Source: Candidatus Thorarchaeota archaeon (lineage in GTDB: Archaea > Asgardarchaeota > Heimdallarchaeia > Hodarchaeales > Hodarchaeaceae). From it: a stretch of 32,000 bases of DNA. How positions within the stretch are numbered: position 1 is the stretch's first letter; the number at the start of each line of letters is the position of its first letter. The stretch spans positions 210,001 to 242,000 of the forward strand of contig JBHLRO010000003.1 of NCBI GenBank assembly GCA_048882505.1, in the 5' to 3' direction. The notes beneath the pieces were generated by a model, which was not told where the DNA came from, ran no database searches, and saw only the letters and a list, made by a program, of their open reading frames with translations. Shown here one piece after another: positions 1 through 11,223 of the stretch. The translations under genes and the position numbers were made by a program.

Positions 1-303
1 ACCACGTTTGAGTGCACGGTCTCTCGCTAATACGTGTTTTTCACTGTTACTATAACGGAGGAAAGAATTAACCTGATTAAATCCGTTGACAAACAAAAAA
101 AGAGGAAACGTTAAGAATAAACCAATTAATGTCACCAAAAACCATATTAAACTCACCCCCCCTTGATCCCAATTAAGGACAGCCGGATAATCATACCAAA
201 TCATGCCATGAGTTATAATCATTAGAATTATTCCGATCCCTTTTAACAAATCAACTGAGAAAAGGTAGAATGAAGGCGATGGATTTCTTTTATTTGCTTC
301 CAA
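1..303 (-). CDS. Partial membrane protein, DUF1624 / heparan-alpha-glucosaminide N-acetyltransferase-like (runs off the left edge)
   Basis: Not in the ORF track; translated by hand. TTG start at 303 with AGGAG about 10 nt upstream. Reads (M)EANKRNPSPSFYLFSVDLLKGIGIILMIITHGMIWYDY...VSLIWFLVTLIGLFLTFPLFLFVNG..., open to base 1. The 'S-x-D-L-L-K/R-G-x-x-I-x-x-M-x-x-x-H' N-terminal motif is typical of DUF1624/HGSNAT/acyltransferase-3 membrane proteins. Confidence 0.7.
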   Translation of the reverse strand, partial: MEANKRNPSPSFYLFSVDLLKGIGIILMIITHGMIWYDYPAVLNWDQGGVSLIWFLVTLIGLFLTFPLFLFVNGFNQVNSFLRYSNSEKHVLARDRALKRG

Positions 304-602
304 GCCATTAGGACTCCTAACTTAGATCATCAGCGAATATTGTAGTTTTAAAATCTGTTGTGAAAAGATTCATAGCTTTTCTATTCCTCTGTCCTCCTCC
401 CGAATTAATATAATTCGGATGAGGGTTCCGTCAATTGAATAACGATTACCCGTAAAAATTGATGACACGCTCATCTTGGTCTTTGTTCAGCGAAAAACAA
501 TGACAGGAACTAGTGCGCTGAAAATTTGAAAATTTCAAAGTCCATCTACCAGCCCATTCCCCGTTGATTAGGTTTCCCGATCACCTTCCATTAAAACCTT
601 AG

Positions 603-1286
603 ATGATTGCCATGTCAGAGACCCCTAAACTATTCATTTTCGACCTTGATGATACATTGATTCGCTCAAACATTGACTATATGGCAATAAGATTGTCTAT
701 TGCAGAGCTTTTTGATTCTCCGCCCACATTAAAAGAACTATCGGGGACTCCGATATTACTTGTCCTGGAAAACCTCCGGAAGATCCATCCAGAAAGATAT
801 CGGGAGGGAAAAAGACGAATCTACGAAACCGAGGAAGAAGCCGCAAATACGGCAGCTGGGATTGATGGTGCGCACACCATTCCGGAGCTATTGGATCAAT
901 ATCAGATTTATTCCGCCATCCTCACAAATAACTCTCGAAAAGGTGTTGAAATTTATCTGAATAATCCAGAGCTCGCATACCTGACGAAATTCAAAATCTT
1001 CACACGGGATGATTTTTCCCAGGCCAAGCCTTCCCCAGAAGGTATTGAAACAATCATTAATTACTTTAAGAATCATGTGGACAGAGGAATTACAGGCGAT
1101 AATACTGTATACATAGGAGATTCCTATATTGATGCTTTGGCGGCTGATCGCGCTTGTGTGAGGTTTGTATGGTTTCATTCACGGAAAATTGCGGATCACC
1201 TGTTCCCCACACAACCAGTGGCCACTCTTTCCAACTGGAACCAACTTGAGGGCTTAATAGCTCGGTTTTCACAAACCGTTTTGTAA
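603..1286 (+). CDS. HAD-superfamily hydrolase (phosphoglycolate phosphatase-like)
   Basis: HAD motif I FDLDDT, motif II LTNN, motif III KPSP, motif IV GDSYID. Confidence 0.9.
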   Translation: MIAMSETPKLFIFDLDDTLIRSNIDYMAIRLSIAELFDSPPTLKELSGTPILLVLENLRKIHPERYREGKRRIYETEEEAANTAAGIDGAHTIPELLDQYQIYSAILTNNSRKGVEIYLNNPELAYLTKFKIFTRDDFSQAKPSPEGIETIINYFKNHVDRGITGDNTVYIGDSYIDALAADRACVRFVWFHSRKIADHLFPTQPVATLSNWNQLEGLIARFSQTVL

Positions 1287-1397
1287 CTGGAAAAAAAAAA
1301 GGGTACCTTATAATCAGCGAAGTATTCCCCCCGCTCGTGAATTTAGTTGCCCCCGTGCATTATTCTTTCATATTATTAGCCAATAAATACGTCGGAG

Positions 1398-1610
1398 ATG
1401 AAATCAAAATTGCGCTTGTTTGCGTTCCAAGAATTAGCTTATGCAATAGTAGTCGCTAGCGCTTATGGCCTCCTAATTGGCATTTTATATAACCCAGCCC
1501 CCGATGTGTTCATCTTCATCGTTTGGGGAGGTATGATTTTGTTACATTTGCTGGGAATAATTTTAATAGTTCGTCTTGAGGAACGAGAACAGAAATCAAA
1601 TGACATGTAA
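1398..1610 (+). CDS. Small two-TM membrane protein, unknown function
   Basis: 70 aa with two hydrophobic stretches and a charged tail; GGAG immediately upstream of the ATG. Confidence 0.55.
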   Translation: MKSKLRLFAFQELAYAIVVASAYGLLIGILYNPAPDVFIFIVWGGMILLHLLGIILIVRLEEREQKSNDM

Positions 1611-1746
1611 ACTGGCAATCAGTAAAACGTGAAACCTGGCGATGACTCCGAATAGGGTATGTCTTCACCTTTATAATAACATCACATAAGCCATCATTGA
1701 TCAATTCCCAGTTAATCGTATAGATAAATAAAAGGAAAAAGCAAGT

Positions 1747-1926
1747 ATGTCAACTCAATTAACCTGTCACGAATGTGGTGCCACTGAAGCAATTCCAAAC
1801 CACTGTGGGCAACCCATGCACATTGAAGAGGTTGAGGGCAAAGCGATACTTGTCTGTTGGATGGGTCCTGGGTGTGGAAAACGAGAAATACCCGTACATC
1901 ATGGTAAACCAATGTTCATTCCATGA
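1747..1926 (+). CDS. 59-aa Cys/His-rich metal-binding miniprotein with two desulforedoxin/rubredoxin-like repeats
   Basis: Below the ORF-track length cut-off; translated by hand: MSTQLTCHECGATEAIPNHCGQPMHIEEVEGKAILVCWMGPGCGKREIPVHHGKPMFIP*. Contains an internal repeat L-x-C..CG..IP-x-H[C/H]G-x-PM. Confidence 0.8.
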   Translation: MSTQLTCHECGATEAIPNHCGQPMHIEEVEGKAILVCWMGPGCGKREIPVHHGKPMFIP

Positions 1927-2016
1927 TGGTATCTATCTATTATAGCTGGGTCTGTTAACAGTTTTTATTTGAATATTGTTTTCCGAGAATAGACTGTAAC
2001 TCTTTTAAGGTAAAAA

Positions 2017-2030
2017 TTCACAAGTGTGAA
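2017..2030. promoter_or_regulatory. Palindrome TTCACA-AG-TGTGAA just upstream of a TATA-like TTATAT (2034-2039) in front of the iron permease
   Basis: Perfect 6-2-6 inverted repeat seen in the sequence. Its role as an operator is inference. Confidence 0.35.
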
Positions 2031-2096
2031 CAATTATATGATGATGAAATCACTACCTAGATCAAGATTAAAATTGTGTTAATTAAATAATTCAAC

Positions 2097-3098
2097 ATGA
2101 TTCTTGGTGAAACCAAATTGGCGTTGTCCGTAATTGTGAGTCTCTTAATATTCAGCTTTGTTACGTCGTTACGAGAAGTTCTGGAGGCCGCCCTGATCAT
2201 TGGCATGATTGGGAGCTATTTGGCTGTGATTAACCGTAAAGATCTCTTTAAAGATGTTTTATTTGGGATTGCTGCCGCAATTGTTCTCAGTATTGGTATG
2301 GCATGGATTTTTTTGACTTTATTTGCAGGATTGGAAGAATATCAAAAATTATTTGAAGCAGGGGTCATGCTTCTCGCAGCCGCCGTCCTTACATGGATGG
2401 TAGTATGGATGTCTCAGCAGGCCAAGAACCTCAAAACGGAGTTCCAAGAGAAAATTGATAAAGCTATTACCCGTCAGGAGAAAGCAGGTATCATTTTATT
2501 GGTCTTCTTTTCAGTGGGCCGCGAAGGGGCCGAACTGGTTCTCTTCCTGTATGCAAATTACCTCAGTGGTATCCAAGAGCTGGATCCGATCCTTAGTCTT
2601 TCCGTAAATCTGGGAGGATTTGTTATTGGCGTTTTCGGGGCTATAATGCTTGCTTTCATCCTATTTACAAGCACTCAAAGGTTGAGTCTCAAAAGATTTT
2701 TTCAAGTAACCAGCTTTATACTCATTGTGTTTGCTGCCGGACTCGTGGCCCATGGGATTCACGAAGTGTTTGAATATTTGGAAATTAGTGGCTCTTCGGT
2801 GACAGAACTCTTTATTTGGACCGAAGTCTGGAACATTAACTTTACTCCCTTAGGGGACATGTTTCAGCTACTTTTTGGATGGGGATATGATCCCAGCTTT
2901 CCGTTGCGGTTTGAAAAGAGCTTTATTGGCGGAATTTTAGTAGGTTTATTCGGTTGGAACGACAATCCCGCATTGATAGAAGTTGTTGCTTACATTGGCT
3001 ACTATGTTTTGCTAGCGTGGATACTGAGCCGAATCAAGCCCAAACTGATGCCAGATAAAGCTGAAATTCCTACTCCAGGAACGCCCATTAATCCATGA
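2097..3098 (+). CDS. ftr1: FTR1/EfeU-family iron permease
   Basis: Two RExxE motifs (REVLE, REGAE) in a multi-TM protein, plus AAGLVAHGIHE and the C-terminal 'LFGW' region typical of FTR1. Confidence 0.92.
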   Translation: MILGETKLALSVIVSLLIFSFVTSLREVLEAALIIGMIGSYLAVINRKDLFKDVLFGIAAAIVLSIGMAWIFLTLFAGLEEYQKLFEAGVMLLAAAVLTWMVVWMSQQAKNLKTEFQEKIDKAITRQEKAGIILLVFFSVGREGAELVLFLYANYLSGIQELDPILSLSVNLGGFVIGVFGAIMLAFILFTSTQRLSLKRFFQVTSFILIVFAAGLVAHGIHEVFEYLEISGSSVTELFIWTEVWNINFTPLGDMFQLLFGWGYDPSFPLRFEKSFIGGILVGLFGWNDNPALIEVVAYIGYYVLLAWILSRIKPKLMPDKAEIPTPGTPINP

Positions 3099-3145
3099 GC
3101 AGAAAGACATTCTATCATCTTTTTTTATCCAAATTTGAGTTAGGA

Positions 3146-5266
3146 CTAATCCAGGATTCTCAAGGAATTGAGGATTGTCAGAATTGTTACACCTACGTCG
3201 CCAAAAACTGCAGCCCACATAGTGGCAATACCCATTGCCCCGAGCAGGATGAAAACAACCTTCAAGCCAATAGCAAGTCCAATATTCTGCTTGGCAATTT
3301 TTCGGGTTTTCTTTGCAATTTCCATTGCAATCCCTAATTTTTCTGGATTGTCGTCCATAATCACTAGATCTGCTGCTTCAATGGTAGCATCGGATCCTAT
3401 TCCTCCCATCGCAACTCCTACATCGGCCCCTGCAATCACAGGCGCGTCATTAATTCCGTCGCCCACAAAAATAACGTATCGTCTTTTATTTTCGGATCCA
3501 TCGTTCATGTGCGCCTCCAAAATCTCCAATTTATTTAGGGGCATCAAGTTTGTATATATACTATCGGATTGGATCCCTAATTCATGACCCACCCGTTCTC
3601 CTATGTCTTTGGTGTCCCCAGTTAAGAGCCCAATTGTTTGGATGGAGAAATCATTCAATCTAGCTATTGCTTTCTTTGAGGACTCCCTGATACGGTCATC
3701 AACAATAATATGACCCATATACTCATTATTTTTGATGACATAAACCGCAGTTTGATCCTTAACGCAGTTCGGATGCGGACATTCTATTGAATGAACTAAA
3801 CGGTCGTTTCCCACCATTATTTCATCATTAAATCCACCGTTATCTACGCGGCACCTAATCCCCAATGCAGGGAGCTCCTCATATTGTTCAATTCTAGACA
3901 GATCTGTCGGTTTACCATATGCTTCGCGAATTGAAACAGCGATGGGGTGGGTCGAGTGAGCTTCAGCTATGGCAGCGATTTTAAGTACCTCATCGGGAGG
4001 TACACCTTTTCGCGGAACAACCGTAACTACTGAGAATTTTCCGACTGTCAAGGTTCCGGTCTTATCCCACAAGACGGTATTAATTTTGCCGAGTTCATCA
4101 AGGACATTGGCACCCTTGAAGAGAATTCCTTCACGGGAACTCTTGCCAATTCCAGAAAAATATGCGAGTGGAACAGAAACAACGAGCGCGCACGGACAGG
4201 AAATTACAAGAATCACCAGAGCTCGATATATCCACTCGTTCAGTGGTTCTTGTAAAAGAAGCGGAGGAAAAAGGCCCACTAAAATTGCAAAACCAAGAAT
4301 TATTGGAGTATAAATTCTTGAAAAACGAGTTATGAATCGTTCAGTGTTAGATCTCTTATTAGTAGCATTCTCGATGGCATTCAAGATCCTCGAGACCGTA
4401 GAATTATTAAAAACGGAAGTAACCCGAATACAAATGCTATTATTCGGAATGGCCCCCGAAAGTACTTCCATCCCAGGACTGACTCTAACTGGACGTGATT
4501 CCCCAGTTAAAGCTGATAAATCTAAATTCGCTTCTCCCTTTATGACCACACCATCTAAAGGAACTCGCTCTCCTGGTTTTACCAGAATAATGTCCCCAGC
4601 GTTAATTTCCTCTGCGGGTACTGTTTTTACTGAATCATCTAGCAGTAGGTGAGCCTGGTCGGGCCTAATATCTATCAATGCAGAAATAGATCTTCGAGAA
4701 CGGTTTACTGCTCTCATTTGTAGAGATTCGCCTATGGTGTAAAATACCATCACTGCTACGGCTTCTGGAACCTCTTGGATTAAAATAGCTCCAAGCGTTG
4801 CTATCGACATCAAGAAATATTCATTAGTAAGGTCTAGATTCCGTATTCGTTTCACTGCATTCCATAAAACCTTCCATCCCGCAACACCATATGCAACCAA
4901 CAGCGATATATATCCCAAAAGGATGATATCGCTTGGTAAACTAGAAGTAATCAGAACCATCCCTATCAAGAGCAGTATCGAAGCAAGTAGTGCTTGTACT
5001 AAAGGTAAATTCTCCCTAAACCATTTTTTGGTTACGCTCCCCATAGTTGAAGCTGATATTGCTTTAGTTTCAGGATCTACTTTTGAAATAATCTTGTTTA
5101 TTGTTTCCAAATCATCTGAAGATAGATATAGAGTATTTGTTGCAAAATTAACACAAACTTGTTGATAGTTGTGATTTTTCAGAGATTGTTCTATTTTTAA
5201 TGCGCAATCCGTGCATGTAAGTCCCTTTAATTCATATTTGAAGATAGTTTCTCCCATATTCGACAT
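3146..5266 (-). CDS. cadA: Heavy-metal-translocating P1B-type ATPase (Zn/Cd/Pb, ZntA/CadA type)
   Basis: N-terminal HMA motif GLTCTDC, TGES, CPC in TM6, DKTGT, HP, GDGINDAP, plus the TM7 Lys (GLKVV) and TM8 Asp (FGDVG) characteristic of P1B-2. The track start at 5308 overlaps arsR; the likely start is 5266 (MSNMGE) or 5257. Confidence 0.93.
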   Translation of the reverse strand: MSNMGETIFKYELKGLTCTDCALKIEQSLKNHNYQQVCVNFATNTLYLSSDDLETINKIISKVDPETKAISASTMGSVTKKWFRENLPLVQALLASILLLIGMVLITSSLPSDIILLGYISLLVAYGVAGWKVLWNAVKRIRNLDLTNEYFLMSIATLGAILIQEVPEAVAVMVFYTIGESLQMRAVNRSRRSISALIDIRPDQAHLLLDDSVKTVPAEEINAGDIILVKPGERVPLDGVVIKGEANLDLSALTGESRPVRVSPGMEVLSGAIPNNSICIRVTSVFNNSTVSRILNAIENATNKRSNTERFITRFSRIYTPIILGFAILVGLFPPLLLQEPLNEWIYRALVILVISCPCALVVSVPLAYFSGIGKSSREGILFKGANVLDELGKINTVLWDKTGTLTVGKFSVVTVVPRKGVPPDEVLKIAAIAEAHSTHPIAVSIREAYGKPTDLSRIEQYEELPALGIRCRVDNGGFNDEIMVGNDRLVHSIECPHPNCVKDQTAVYVIKNNEYMGHIIVDDRIRESSKKAIARLNDFSIQTIGLLTGDTKDIGERVGHELGIQSDSIYTNLMPLNKLEILEAHMNDGSENKRRYVIFVGDGINDAPVIAGADVGVAMGGIGSDATIEAADLVIMDDNPEKLGIAMEIAKKTRKIAKQNIGLAIGLKVVFILLGAMGIATMWAAVFGDVGVTILTILNSLRILD

Positions 5267-7318: not shown

Positions 7319-7858
7319 TCATACATGTGATTTGAGAAACTGACGAACGAGACTTTCATAAATTTCTGGGATCTTGTCCCCTCCTTCTTTAGCAGAACAT
7401 TCATAGAATGGATAGTTTAGTTGCTTGGCGATCTTATTGCCTTCTTTGGTTGGAATTTGCCGAAGGTTTTCCAGATCGATCTTATTCCCGATGATTATTA
7501 CATAGACATCATCTCCCACGACATCTTTGTAATCTTTGATTAACTCTGGCAACGTTTCCAACGTGTCTGGTCGTGTTATATCATATACCGCCAGGCAACA
7601 CGACGACCCCTCATAATATATCCTCCGCATTTTCCCGAACTGTTCCTGTCCAGCCGTATCCATCAGTACCATTCTAACCTGTTGCCCATCCATGGTTAAC
7701 CGTTTGACAGTAACGTCTACTCCTAAGGTTGGAATGTAATTCGAGGAAAAGGTATTTTCTGCGTATCGTCGGATTAGTGAGGTTTTTCCCACACTATAAG
7801 AACCGGTTGTACAGATTTTAACAATTATTTCATTCTTCATTTCGTTCTCACTGTTCAT
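7319..7858 (-). CDS. Rab-like small GTPase (Ras superfamily)
   Basis: G1 GSYSVGKTS, G2 YIPTLGVD, G3 DTAGQE, G4 NKID, G5 CSAK, plus Rab-like YYEGS..VYDIT. No C-terminal cysteine. Confidence 0.93.
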   Translation of the reverse strand: MNSENEMKNEIIVKICTTGSYSVGKTSLIRRYAENTFSSNYIPTLGVDVTVKRLTMDGQQVRMVLMDTAGQEQFGKMRRIYYEGSSCCLAVYDITRPDTLETLPELIKDYKDVVGDDVYVIIIGNKIDLENLRQIPTKEGNKIAKQLNYPFYECSAKEGGDKIPEIYESLVRQFLKSHV

Positions 7859-8550: not shown

Positions 8551-8751
8551 CTAAGCGGCCCGAGAATCTTCCTCCGTTTCCTTTAAATCGTTCAGAAAAT
8601 CCTTCTGTAGTCTTGAATATGTTAAAAGGTCATCTCTTTCTTCCAGCTCTTCAAACGTTAAGTCCACTGCCTTAAACATGATGGTTTTTGCCCGTTCCTC
8701 CGAAATTTTTGCTGTTTTCTGCTTGAAGCTTCGAAGTCCTTTGCTGCTCAT
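8551..8751 (-). CDS. Small charged helical hypothetical protein
   Basis: MSSKGLRSFKQKTAKISEERAKTIMFKAVDLTFEELEERDDLLTYSRLQKDFLNDLKETEEDSRAA has amphipathic, protein-like composition. The ATG at 8751 is preferred over the TTG at 8775. Confidence 0.6.
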   Translation of the reverse strand: MSSKGLRSFKQKTAKISEERAKTIMFKAVDLTFEELEERDDLLTYSRLQKDFLNDLKETEEDSRAA

Positions 8752-8938
8752 CCAACAACCACATTCTGTAGGCAAATTTTGAGATTAGTCGGAAGATGGT
8801 ATTACCTGCTTATTAATCAGAGAAATACGGGGGTCATACCGCTTTAATCCTACTGGTTTTAGGCACCCCTTTGGCATTCTACTATTGCACACCCTCTCTG
8901 GTGGCGAATAATCATCCAAGTGCCAGTGTATTGGATCC

Positions 8939-9151
8939 TTACTTCTGTGAAAAATACTGATCTAATGTCTTTGCAAGAATAGGGAGACGTTCAACCTCAG
9001 AAGGATCCATGAGCCTTCCCATATGCTCAAACAACAGTTCTCGGATCGCTGACCGAATTAATTCAGACCTATTAGGGAACTTTCGAATCCGGACGAGTTC
9101 GGCCATAACTTGAAGCGTTTCCTCATCCACATATAGCGTAACTGTTTCCAT
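8939..9151 (-). CDS. Ribbon-helix-helix (CopG/Arc-family) DNA-binding protein
   Basis: METVTLYVDEETLQVMAELVRIRKFPNRSELIRSAIRELL matches the beta-strand plus 'NRSELIRxAIRxLL' RHH pattern. Confidence 0.85.
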   Translation of the reverse strand: METVTLYVDEETLQVMAELVRIRKFPNRSELIRSAIRELLFEHMGRLMDPSEVERLPILAKTLDQYFSQK

Positions 9152-9489
9152 GATACCGTTTTCGTTGAGGAATTATCAAACTTAAAAAACACTACTACCG
9201 ACAATATTTTATGAAAACGTCCTTCCCCGTGGATTTCGCTTAGATTTTGAAAAGCACATAATCTGCGCTGTGATCTAAGGGAGGGTGGCGAATTTCTTTA
9301 AGATTTTTGATTTGGTGGATCCAGGTCTTCTTATCATGTTCAATTCATTCAGGTAAGTCGTGGCTTTGTTAACCTATTCATTTCTTATTCAAATGAGAAA
9401 TGCTTGATTTTCAACTCTTTCCGAATTTCCAACTATTTAAGTGTCTCACGAAACTGGGGGATAGATGCCTTTAAACCTGAATGTGATGA

Positions 9490-10038
9490 ATGATGCCAGC
9501 TGAACATCGCCCAATAATGTATGAAAAGATTGTAATCAGTCCCAAGCGTTTCCTGACTGTGAAATTGTGGCCACCCACGGCCCATCCTCAATGGGGGGTA
9601 ACTCGTGGGGCCATTGAAATTCAAGAGTCACGGATCGGGGAGAACAATGCCATCACATATGGTCAAGCTATTCGCCTCCCATGTAGCGGATCCACGGCGT
9701 TGGTGGCGACCTATCTTCAGCAGTATTTGCTAGAAGGGCGTCGGTTAAATCTGGAGGCTTCGAGGAATGATAAAGAAACGCAAGTTCCTGAATCCGATCA
9801 AACAAAAACTGATGCCTCTGACATCAAAGAAGTGATCTTATCTGAACTTGCTGGATTACAGACCTCTAAGTCTAGAGCATTCAAAACATTACAGGATCAG
9901 GGACATTCATTAGATAAATATGAGTTCTACACAGCGTTAGAAGAGTTAGCGAGTGAAGGAAAAATACAGAAAGAGCAGCGAACCCTTAAGGATTCTAAGG
10001 ACACATACGATCTATGGATAATTCCTCCTCAAACGTAA
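9490..10038 (+). CDS. Hypothetical two-domain protein: PC4/Sub1-like N-terminal domain plus winged-helix-like C-terminal domain
   Basis: The ORF is clearly protein-like. The domain calls come from by-eye comparison only (see findings). Confidence 0.6.
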   Translation: MMPAEHRPIMYEKIVISPKRFLTVKLWPPTAHPQWGVTRGAIEIQESRIGENNAITYGQAIRLPCSGSTALVATYLQQYLLEGRRLNLEASRNDKETQVPESDQTKTDASDIKEVILSELAGLQTSKSRAFKTLQDQGHSLDKYEFYTALEELASEGKIQKEQRTLKDSKDTYDLWIIPPQT

Positions 10039-10126
10039 ATCGATTTCGTTCAAGAATGATTGTGAAATAAAGACTTCGGAACCACCTACTACAACACCAG
10101 GGAAAACAGGTTCGATACTGAATAGA

Positions 10127-10645
10127 TCATAAGGCGAAAGGCGCCTCCCAGGCTCCTTGCACTCGGCCTACCCAATGAAACGGATAGGATATGGTAGCCC
10201 AGTGATAGTCCAAGAATATCTCGATATCTATAACCAAATATGCATCCATAATTGCGAGTATGAAAATCCATGACGACACGTTGATATTGAGACTTAACTG
10301 GTAATACTCGTATGGATCAATCTGCTTAATTCTATGAGAGACATTCAGGATTGGCATATCAGGAAACAATCCAAAAGTTTCAATGCTTACTATTGAGAGG
10401 ATTGCTTCAATCCTTATATTTTCTAATGTTGCGGGGGATTGATTCGACACGTTAACTGGAATCGTTACGTCAATGTATCCGCTAAAGCTTGAACCCTCTC
10501 TAGAAAGGTTTGGTTTAACTGTTGGTTGAGGAGGTATTTCAACCTGGATGTTCTGAGCGGAAAAAAAGAGCATTATTGTTAATGATGCTATCAGTACAGT
10601 TGCCGTTATAGGGATGATTAATGGTTTCTTAGATCGAGGATTCAT
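10127..10645 (-). CDS. Membrane-anchored hypothetical protein (N-terminal TM plus beta-rich extracytoplasmic domain)
   Basis: Basic N-terminus, a TM segment (aa about 9-28), then alternating beta-strand patterns; ATGA 4-nt overlap with the upstream gene. Confidence 0.65.
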   Translation of the reverse strand: MNPRSKKPLIIPITATVLIASLTIMLFFSAQNIQVEIPPQPTVKPNLSREGSSFSGYIDVTIPVNVSNQSPATLENIRIEAILSIVSIETFGLFPDMPILNVSHRIKQIDPYEYYQLSLNINVSSWIFILAIMDAYLVIDIEIFLDYHWATISYPFHWVGRVQGAWEAPFAL

Positions 10646-10848
10646 GATTTAGACATCCAAAGACCCGCGATAGCTAAGCTAGATGCCATAACCATAAATA
10701 TGATCAAAACAATGGTGAGGTTTGAACCAACTTCAAAAATATAGGTTCCGCCCGTTCTACTACCAAGAAAAATACCAAGAATCGTAGATCCCGTCATAAT
10801 AGCGGTGATCTTCCCTACATCCAACAGATTCTTGTTATCCATTTGCAT
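10642..10848 (-). CDS. Small two-TM membrane protein
   Basis: 68 aa with two hydrophobic helices; translationally coupled (ATGA overlap) to 10127..10645. Confidence 0.65.
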   Translation of the reverse strand: MQMDNKNLLDVGKITAIMTGSTILGIFLGSRTGGTYIFEVGSNLTIVLIIFMVMASSLAIAGLWMSKS

Positions 10849-11004: not shown

Positions 11005-11223
11005 ATGGCTAAAGGCAAACGAGAGAAGGAAACGGCCTCCAAAAGGTCAGCACAAATCACCAAGGCAAAAACAATCTTGTTAAGAGTTTCTGATAATCTT
11101 TATGATTCTATCGAAAAAGCCATCCAATTAGGGATCGCAGATAACGCCTCCGAATTTGTACGACGCTGCGTAGTCAATCAGCTTTTGGATTTACGATTAT
11201 TGGGATTGGAAGAGAAACAATAG
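11005..11223 (+). CDS. Ribbon-helix-helix (CopG-like) DNA-binding protein with a basic N-terminal arm
   Basis: KTILLRVSDNLYDSIEKAIQLGIADNASEFVRRCV fits the RHH strand-helix-'SEFVR' helix pattern. Confidence 0.75.
   Translation: MAKGKREKETASKRSAQITKAKTILLRVSDNLYDSIEKAIQLGIADNASEFVRRCVVNQLLDLRLLGLEEKQ

Follow-up and report, generated by a model that had tools for sequence, protein, structure and literature searches.

Introduction

PC4-like domains, such as those of PC4/Sub1, Pur-alpha, Whirly and YdbC, are versatile binders of single-stranded DNA (ssDNA) and RNA. Here we analyze P0001, the 182-residue product of an open reading frame (ORF) with an ATG start at positions 9490-10038 of the forward strand of a window comprising 32,000 nucleotides of a Candidatus Thorarchaeota archaeon genome (Heimdallarchaeia, Hodarchaeaceae; assembly GCA_048882505.1, contig JBHLRO010000003.1, positions 210,001 to 242,000). 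The N-terminal domain of P0001 (N-domain) is predicted to adopt a PC4-like fold and to homodimerize, and it is joined by a flexible linker to a C-terminal winged helix. We favor, with modest confidence, the view that P0001 is a dimeric binder of single-stranded nucleic acid whose two tethered winged helices hold duplex DNA or recruit proteins.

According to a review of the PC4-like fold, which does not mention archaea, most PC4-like domains share no sequence similarity and may have arisen independently; the type II PC4-like superfamily, sensu Janowski & Niessing 2020, is homodimeric (PMC7549692). The nearest solved structure to the N-domain is a type II homodimer built from a single PUR repeat, Borrelia burgdorferi Pur-alpha (PDB 3n8b/3nm7). 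Identity to this protein is only 11-12%, and the Asgard protein differs from it in its extended β2-β3 hairpin (residues 28-40), its much longer helix (31 residues) and its added C-terminal winged helix. PC4/Sub1 proper (PF02229), which includes human PC4, YdbC, BPSL1147 and the PC4-like protein of phage T5, has no detectable sequence relationship with P0001. For the C-terminal domain, close known systems are the winged helix of Hop2 (PDB 2mh2) and those found at the C-terminus of MCM proteins (PF21128/PF21100). The overall layout recalls RPA32 (RPA2/Stn1-type), in which an ssDNA-binding domain is followed by a C-terminal winged helix that recruits proteins, but this is an analogy of layout only: RPA32 has an OB fold, whereas the N-domain of P0001 is a four-stranded sheet with a helix, and the two share no sequence similarity. 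An initial annotation of the window, made by eye, had proposed a PC4/Sub1-like domain fused to a winged helix and knew of no described precedent; our literature search likewise found no paper on a PC4-like domain fused to a winged helix, and none of the papers listed on PC4/Sub1/ssDNA mentions Asgard archaea.

Predicted fold of the N-terminal domain

The domains and linker of P0001 map to the following positions of the window:

9511-9780, forward strand: N-domain (residues 8-97), four antiparallel strands and a long helix, assigned with AlphaFold2 (AF2), Foldseek and VIA
9781-9819, forward strand: flexible polar/acidic linker (residues 98-110), of low predicted local distance difference test (pLDDT) values and variable
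9820-10026, forward strand: C-terminal winged helix (residues 111-179), with helices H1 112-119, H2 127-136 and H3 143-155 and wing strands 160-165 and 172-177

Because the winged helix dominated the matches obtained with the whole protein, leaving the N-domain barely probed, we modeled and searched the N-domain by itself (AF2, residues 1-98, with 14 relatives in the alignment). The resulting model has a pLDDT of 90.9 and a β-β-β-β-α order, as had been claimed for residues 12-90, with strands at residues 10-17, 20-27, 41-49 and 55-64 and a 31-residue helix at 67-97. Residues 28-40 (30-38 in one listing), earlier read as an insertion in the β-hairpin, are modeled as an extended β2-β3 hairpin. 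The full-length AF2 model (pLDDT 70) places strands at residues 10-17, 20-31, 38-49 and 55-64 and a helix at 68-93, followed by a disordered segment (93-109) and by the C-terminal helices and strands at the positions given above.

Structure searches with the N-domain model returned PC4-like proteins in all of the first 13 rows of the Foldseek output, with modest E-values (0.006-0.2), and the top matches of both Foldseek and VIA were Pur-alpha, PC4 homologs and PURA, which agrees with the PC4/PUR-type fold anticipated by the initial annotation. Solved PC4-like domains are thus the closest structural neighbors of the N-domain, and the matches cover the whole domain. In the Atlas and viral structure libraries, the N-domain model matched phage ssDNA-binding proteins as well as clusters of PF02229, PF11680 and PF04845. 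Propeller blades matched the sheet only.

COMMD chains matched the N-domain model with a score of about 5, weaker than PUR or PC4. In a rival scaffold hypothesis, the β4-α module would assemble into oligomers, COMM-like or of another kind, and partner proteins would dock onto the acidic winged helix, with no nucleic acid bound. The COMM domain of COMMD and prokaryotic COMMD-like proteins differs from P0001 in more than the strength of the match: the HN helical domain is absent here, the order is reversed, with the sheet-helix module in N-terminal position, and the surface of the N-domain is basic, whereas that of COMM is neutral. We consider this hypothesis quite improbable.

On the basis of the models, we place the N-domain in the PC4-like/PUR-like fold class and not in the PC4 or PUR sequence families, since no sequence kinship with either family was detected and most members of the fold class are known to lack sequence similarity (PMC7549692). 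The PC4 correspondences drawn by eye in the initial annotation therefore stand at the level of the fold; they receive no backing from hidden Markov model (HMM) or profile-profile comparisons, and the nearest structure is bacterial Pur-alpha, not PC4/Sub1.

Predicted homodimer and proposed binding surface

Prediction of a complex of two N-domain copies yielded ipSAE values of 0.79 in two runs and 0.77 in a third, whereas the highest value among three controls was 0.00; in calibration, 20 of 30 solved homodimers and 1 of 23 monomers attained the mark set for this score. At least 98% of the contacts were common to the runs, and the pLDDT of the partner never fell below 84 (85 in all three runs). 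The two helices of the predicted dimer cross each other at residues 72-76. Each lies on the sheet of the other subunit, helix residues 63-94 touching both the partner helix and partner sheet residues 14, 24-26 and 42. On the sheet side, even-numbered residues of β1-β3 and residues 59, 61 and 63 of β4 meet the partner helix. The models thus predict a helix-swapped homodimer, which is the type II PC4-like arrangement. The PC4-like dimer that the initial annotation had looked for, having likened the long helix to the PC4 dimerization helix, is borne out by this prediction.

Alternating residues of the strands contact the partner helix in the predicted dimer, and K25, W27, E43, Q45 and R62 would therefore face the solvent. 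The exposed face of the sheet would then form an aromatic-plus-basic surface of the kind that PC4 uses. The N-domain is basic, with an isoelectric point (pI) of 9.4 in P0001 and of 7.9-10.6 in all 15 full-length relatives. Across 18 diverse N-domains, S17 and E46 are strictly conserved, P8, L26, W27, Y57 and R84 almost strictly so, and K25 and R62 in most cases; E46 and R84 probably form a pair that fastens the helix to the sheet.

Linker and winged helix

Residues 93-109 have a pLDDT below 50 in the full-length model, which agrees with the charged linker that had been noted at approximately residues 91-110. Both the sequence and the length of this segment vary among relatives, with nonsynonymous divergence (pN) about equal to or above synonymous divergence (pS). 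The C-terminal model has the H1-S1-H2-H3-S2-W1-S3 topology with a β-hairpin wing, and thus corresponds to a canonical winged helix, as proposed for residues 111-180.

Searches of P0001 against Pfam, PHROGs, NCBIfam and PADLOC produced no significant match; the top one, to PF21128 (MCM4_WHD), scored 12.9-14.2 bits, below the gathering score of 24.4. One of 16 family members, P0008, exceeds the cut-off of this model (27.9 bits), and two members match MCM_C at an E-value of 0.002. Against PDB sequences, the sole match of the winged-helix profile was a PadR-like protein (E = 0.03). No Atlas cluster aligned with the two domains together in a full-length search, a null result that is uninformative because the query model orients the domains arbitrarily with respect to each other.

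The best full-length structural matches were PadR, Fur, MarR and VanR regulators. These matches support the main rival to a dimeric binder of single-stranded nucleic acid, namely that P0001 is a conventional archaeal winged-helix transcription regulator in which the β4-α module only dimerizes or senses a ligand. Two Atlas neighbors of the N-domain point in the same direction, a 144-residue archaeal cluster automatically named 'ArsR family transcriptional regulator' and a 178-residue cluster partly carrying HTH_5, as do the strong predicted dimerization of the N-domain, which regulators need, the conservation of a Lys/Arg-rich wing and, where H2 begins, of an SK[ST]R motif, and the solitary position of P0001 beside a divergent ribbon-helix-helix (RHH) regulator gene. 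The charge of the winged helix fits this rival poorly: the domain is net acidic in P0001 (pI 4.8), its pI is 4.7-6.1 in 11 of 15 relatives, and the recognition helix is variable and Glu-rich, which argues against classical sequence-specific binding of duplex DNA. Moreover, the N-domain is the basic part of the protein and also occurs without a winged helix or with a helix-hairpin-helix (HhH) module, which would be odd for a mere dimerization unit, and no conserved target operon adjoins the gene. We therefore regard a conventional regulator as rather unlikely. The features of the winged helix are better suited to backbone contacts or protein docking than to sequence-specific reading.

Sequence searches and distribution of the family

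Sequence searches with P0001 revealed a small family. A search of the PDB with the single sequence returned no match, and the N-domain profile retrieved only chance rows from the PDB (an ENTH domain and an antibody Fab; E = 0.5-1.4). An hmmscan of the N-domain yielded nothing for P0001 (E ≤ 10) and nothing for eight relatives (E ≤ 1). The PUR models PF04845 (PurA) and PF11680 (DUF3276) did not match P0001 at E ≤ 10, nor were PUR chains found in the PDB sequence or profile searches at the same threshold. A KRF-x-L-x-VK-like motif of PUR repeats may have a counterpart in ISPKRFLTVK, a resemblance to which no weight is given here. PF02229 (gathering score 25 bits) had no match in P0001 or its N-domain (E ≤ 10), in the eight relatives (E ≤ 1) or in the whole genome from which the window was taken.

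Another Asgard family encodes canonical single-domain PC4 proteins (PF02229, 39-49 bits, approximately 85-100 residues) in 16 of the 19 genomes searched (loci L028-L042), and none was found in the genus of the window. These PC4 proteins carry the NCBI name 'transcriptional coactivator p15/PC4 family protein' (in Hermod-/Promethearchaeota metagenome-assembled genomes). A word-indexed search started from an Asgard PC4 protein returned nearly exclusively close relatives, with only three matches at 44-51% identity.

An exhaustive phmmer search of 1.84 billion cluster representatives matched only 14 proteins, among them full-length relatives (170-186 residues), stand-alone N-domains (101-113 residues) and P0010, in which a weak HhH module (HHH_5, 18.4 bits, below the cut-off) precedes the N-domain. 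Searching 5.8 billion proteins with the N-domain profile returned only family members, among them further unannotated ones, none with a Pfam domain. The N-domain thus occurs alone, with a winged helix or with an HhH module, and its fusion partners are therefore DNA-associated modules. The description of P0001 as an orphan holds insofar as no curated family matches it, and fails insofar as a small unannotated family exists.

The survey of homologs and neighborhoods in Asgard genomes that the initial annotation had suggested located the N-domain in 19 of the 301 genomes searched, in chromosomal contexts. These comprise 14 of 20 species of the same genus, both genomes available in each of two other families, and the genome of the window itself; the profile had no match in the remaining 25 Asgard families searched. 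The family is thus small and unannotated, of Heimdall type, and probably lineage-restricted. The window genome also encodes a paralog, 61% identical and with the same two domains, at 95.4-96.0 kb of contig C14 (L008:1222-1815, reverse strand; L009:9407-10000, reverse strand).

Gene structure and conservation

The following features precede the coding sequence:

9434-9441, forward strand: putative archaeal TATA box TATTTAAG, with a conserved TTTCCAAC ahead of it
9483-9487, forward strand: Shine-Dalgarno-like GTGAT, 5 nt ahead of the second ATG

The ORF and the peptides cited in the initial annotation were all located as given: IVISPKRFLTVKLW at residues 14-27, PPTAHPQWGVTR at 28-39, AIEIQESRIGENNAITYG at 41-58, AIRLP at 60-64 and LVATYLQQYLLEGRRL at 71-86, followed by the charged linker and by the C-terminal segment at 111-178. 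The stop codon occupies positions 10036-10038. The true start is probably the second ATG, at 9493, since the first ATG is replaced by ATA in the closest ortholog and GTGAT lies 5 nt before 9493. The resulting coding sequence (9493-10038) would encode 181 residues, the same length as the orthologs. GTGAT, which we take to correspond to the GGTGAT portion of the anti-Shine-Dalgarno complement, is part of a GTGATGA kept in the window and in the orthologous loci L001 and L003 (GGTGATGA in L003). The TATA-like box is kept as TTTTTAAG, TATATAAG and TATAAAAA in two orthologs and in the in-genome paralog, at equal distance to the start, which is consistent with its putative role as a promoter element.

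The dN/dS ratio of P0001 is 0.15 against an ortholog of 91% identity and 0.11 against one of 78% identity, indicating purifying selection. Both orthologs retain the two domains, with a diverged linker. Against the 78% ortholog, pN and pS are, respectively, 0.077 and 0.606 in the N-domain, 0.074 and 0.716 in the winged helix, and 0.438 and 0.170 in the linker. P0001 is a real gene and not a chance ORF. Chance suffices to explain the small ORFs on the opposite strand. No RNA data set was listed among the public sequencing runs in which this stretch occurs.

Genomic context

In the window, P0001 is preceded by genes for a methyltransferase, a membrane protein and a Ras-family GTPase, a 74-codon ORF and the divergent RHH gene, and is followed by two small putative membrane proteins, a 72-codon ORF, a β-propeller protein and a GNAT protein. 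Synteny with the contexts of the 91% and 78% orthologs extends over more than 10 kb. No integrase, capsid, replication-initiator, defense or other mobile-element gene was found near P0001 in the window, and GC content is flat across it.

These observations bear on the suggestion, made in the initial annotation, that P0001 might be the single-stranded DNA-binding protein (SSB) of a mobile element, such as a virus or plasmid integrated in the chromosome. Phages encode many PC4-like proteins, the structural similarity of the N-domain extends weakly to PC4-like and SSB proteins of phages (E = 0.008-0.1), and an RHH gene adjoins P0001. Yet the gene sits in extended synteny among ordinary cellular genes, without mobile-element genes nearby, deviation in GC content or any PHROG match, and 14 of 20 congeneric species carry a family member, making a mobile origin highly improbable.

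Beyond close orthologs no conserved neighbors are shared, and distant members lie in unrelated contexts. The paralog is convergent with a gene for an ERCC4+HhH2 (XPF/Mus81-type) nuclease and one for a 230-residue protein without family match. In a distant Asgard family, a stand-alone N-domain gene of 88 codons has a Y-family DNA polymerase/DJ-1 pair on one side and a metallo-β-lactamase/β-CASP protein on the other (locus L024, contig C94 of genome G014), with genes arranged as follows:

2-721, reverse strand
805-1386, reverse strand
1483-1740, forward strand
1812-3224, reverse strand

Another stand-alone member is preceded by a TSCPD-domain protein. Each of these DNA-related associations, with ERCC4 nuclease, Y-family polymerase, β-CASP and TSCPD proteins, occurs in a single context and is anecdotal. 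In three unrelated contexts, a family member has a Ras-family GTPase gene no more than 2 kb away (window 7319-7858, L006:5031-5657 and L020:1952-2605, all on the reverse strand), and the family members concerned share 26-36% identity; with 51 Ras-family genes in the 4.3 Mb of the window genome, this adjacency represents only a mild excess over chance.

Several further features of the neighborhood were recorded. The RHH gene (window 8939-9151, reverse strand, 70 codons) matches Pfam RHH_1 with 28.3 bits, and its best NCBIfam scores are to archaeal cell-division/cell-cycle regulators, both below threshold (CdrS, 41.3 bits with a cut-off of 100; aCcr1, 27.4 bits with a cut-off of 60). It is found near P0001 orthologs in three relatives, even past a 4-kb S8-peptidase insertion in L003. 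A segment of approximately 1.18 kb with a Peptidase_M55 gene lies directly downstream of the orthologs in L001, L002 and L003 and is cleanly missing from the window (L001:10605-11787 versus window 10038-10127), with flanks 92-93% identical on both sides. Four small ORFs of 74, 172, 68 and 72 codons (window 8551-8775 and 10127-10848, reverse strand; 11005-11223, forward strand) have no family match and are 90-97% conserved in the closest relatives, and are probably real genes; from their sequences, the 172- and 68-residue products are putative membrane proteins. The 74-codon ORF was not found on L003, where the 172-codon ORF is 74% identical. On the contig of the distant homolog P0011, the gene called at L006:1-2953 (reverse strand) has a product of 11,486 residues with no Pfam match on record.

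Discussion

The results presented above suggest a mode of action for P0001 as a dimeric binder of single-stranded nucleic acid. Two N-terminal β-β-β-β-α modules would pair, each long helix packing onto the sheet of the partner, and would jointly form a single complete PC4-like domain of type II, the arrangement seen in Borrelia Pur-alpha, PC4 and YdbC. The basic, solvent-facing sheet, with the conserved residues K25, W27, Q45, R62 and Y57, would bind single-stranded or melted DNA or RNA. A flexible linker of approximately 15-20 residues would tether one winged helix per subunit, and the two winged helices could hold flanking duplex DNA or recruit partners, in the manner of their counterparts in RPA32 and MCM. 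What the analysis shows in silico is a genuine gene with two predicted folds and a predicted dimer, together with the distribution and domain variants of its family; from these we infer that nucleic acid is bound and by which face, as well as any part played in repair, replication or transcription.

Several observations weigh against this interpretation. The N-domain has no sequence homology to any nucleic-acid-binding family in the Pfam, NCBIfam and PDB searches, and comparison of a 23-sequence N-domain alignment with 14 and 37 Asgard PF02229 proteins by hhalign gave probabilities of 1.6% and 0.5%, respectively, with target profiles so shallow (effective number of sequences, 1.4-2.1) that a distant kinship could have escaped notice. 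The exposed face of the sheet also bears a conserved acidic residue, E43, and most members have a net acidic winged helix, with a variable, Glu-rich recognition helix. The dimer prediction may in part reflect the memory that the predictor has of solved PC4-like dimers. Lastly, neighborhoods are not conserved, and no firm pathway can therefore be derived from context.

A more specific version of a dimeric binder would see P0001 as a Heimdall-lineage clamp for melted DNA or ssDNA, whose winged helices, like those of MCM, RPA32 or Hop2, recruit replication, repair or recombination proteins. Candidate partners would be the XPF-type nuclease, Y-family polymerase and β-CASP nuclease encoded beside some members, and the protein would serve as an ssDNA adaptor alongside RPA, functionally analogous to eukaryotic PC4/Sub1 or RPA32 but independently evolved. 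We put this forward tentatively, as an unlikely proposal.

The family is narrow, spanning one genus and four genomes of two other Asgard families, and the function of P0001 is read from predicted structure only. The family has no eukaryotic homolog, and hence has little bearing on eukaryogenesis. What is new is a sequence-orphan Asgard family with a predicted PC4-like fold and a layout consisting of a dimeric β4-α module, a linker and a winged helix, together with variants in which the module stands alone or is fused to HhH, and with a second copy of the gene in the genome of the window. If nucleic-acid binding proves true, the family would constitute a second kind of single-strand binder beside RPA in Heimdall-type archaea, and would illustrate cleanly how the PC4-like fold is reused as a module.
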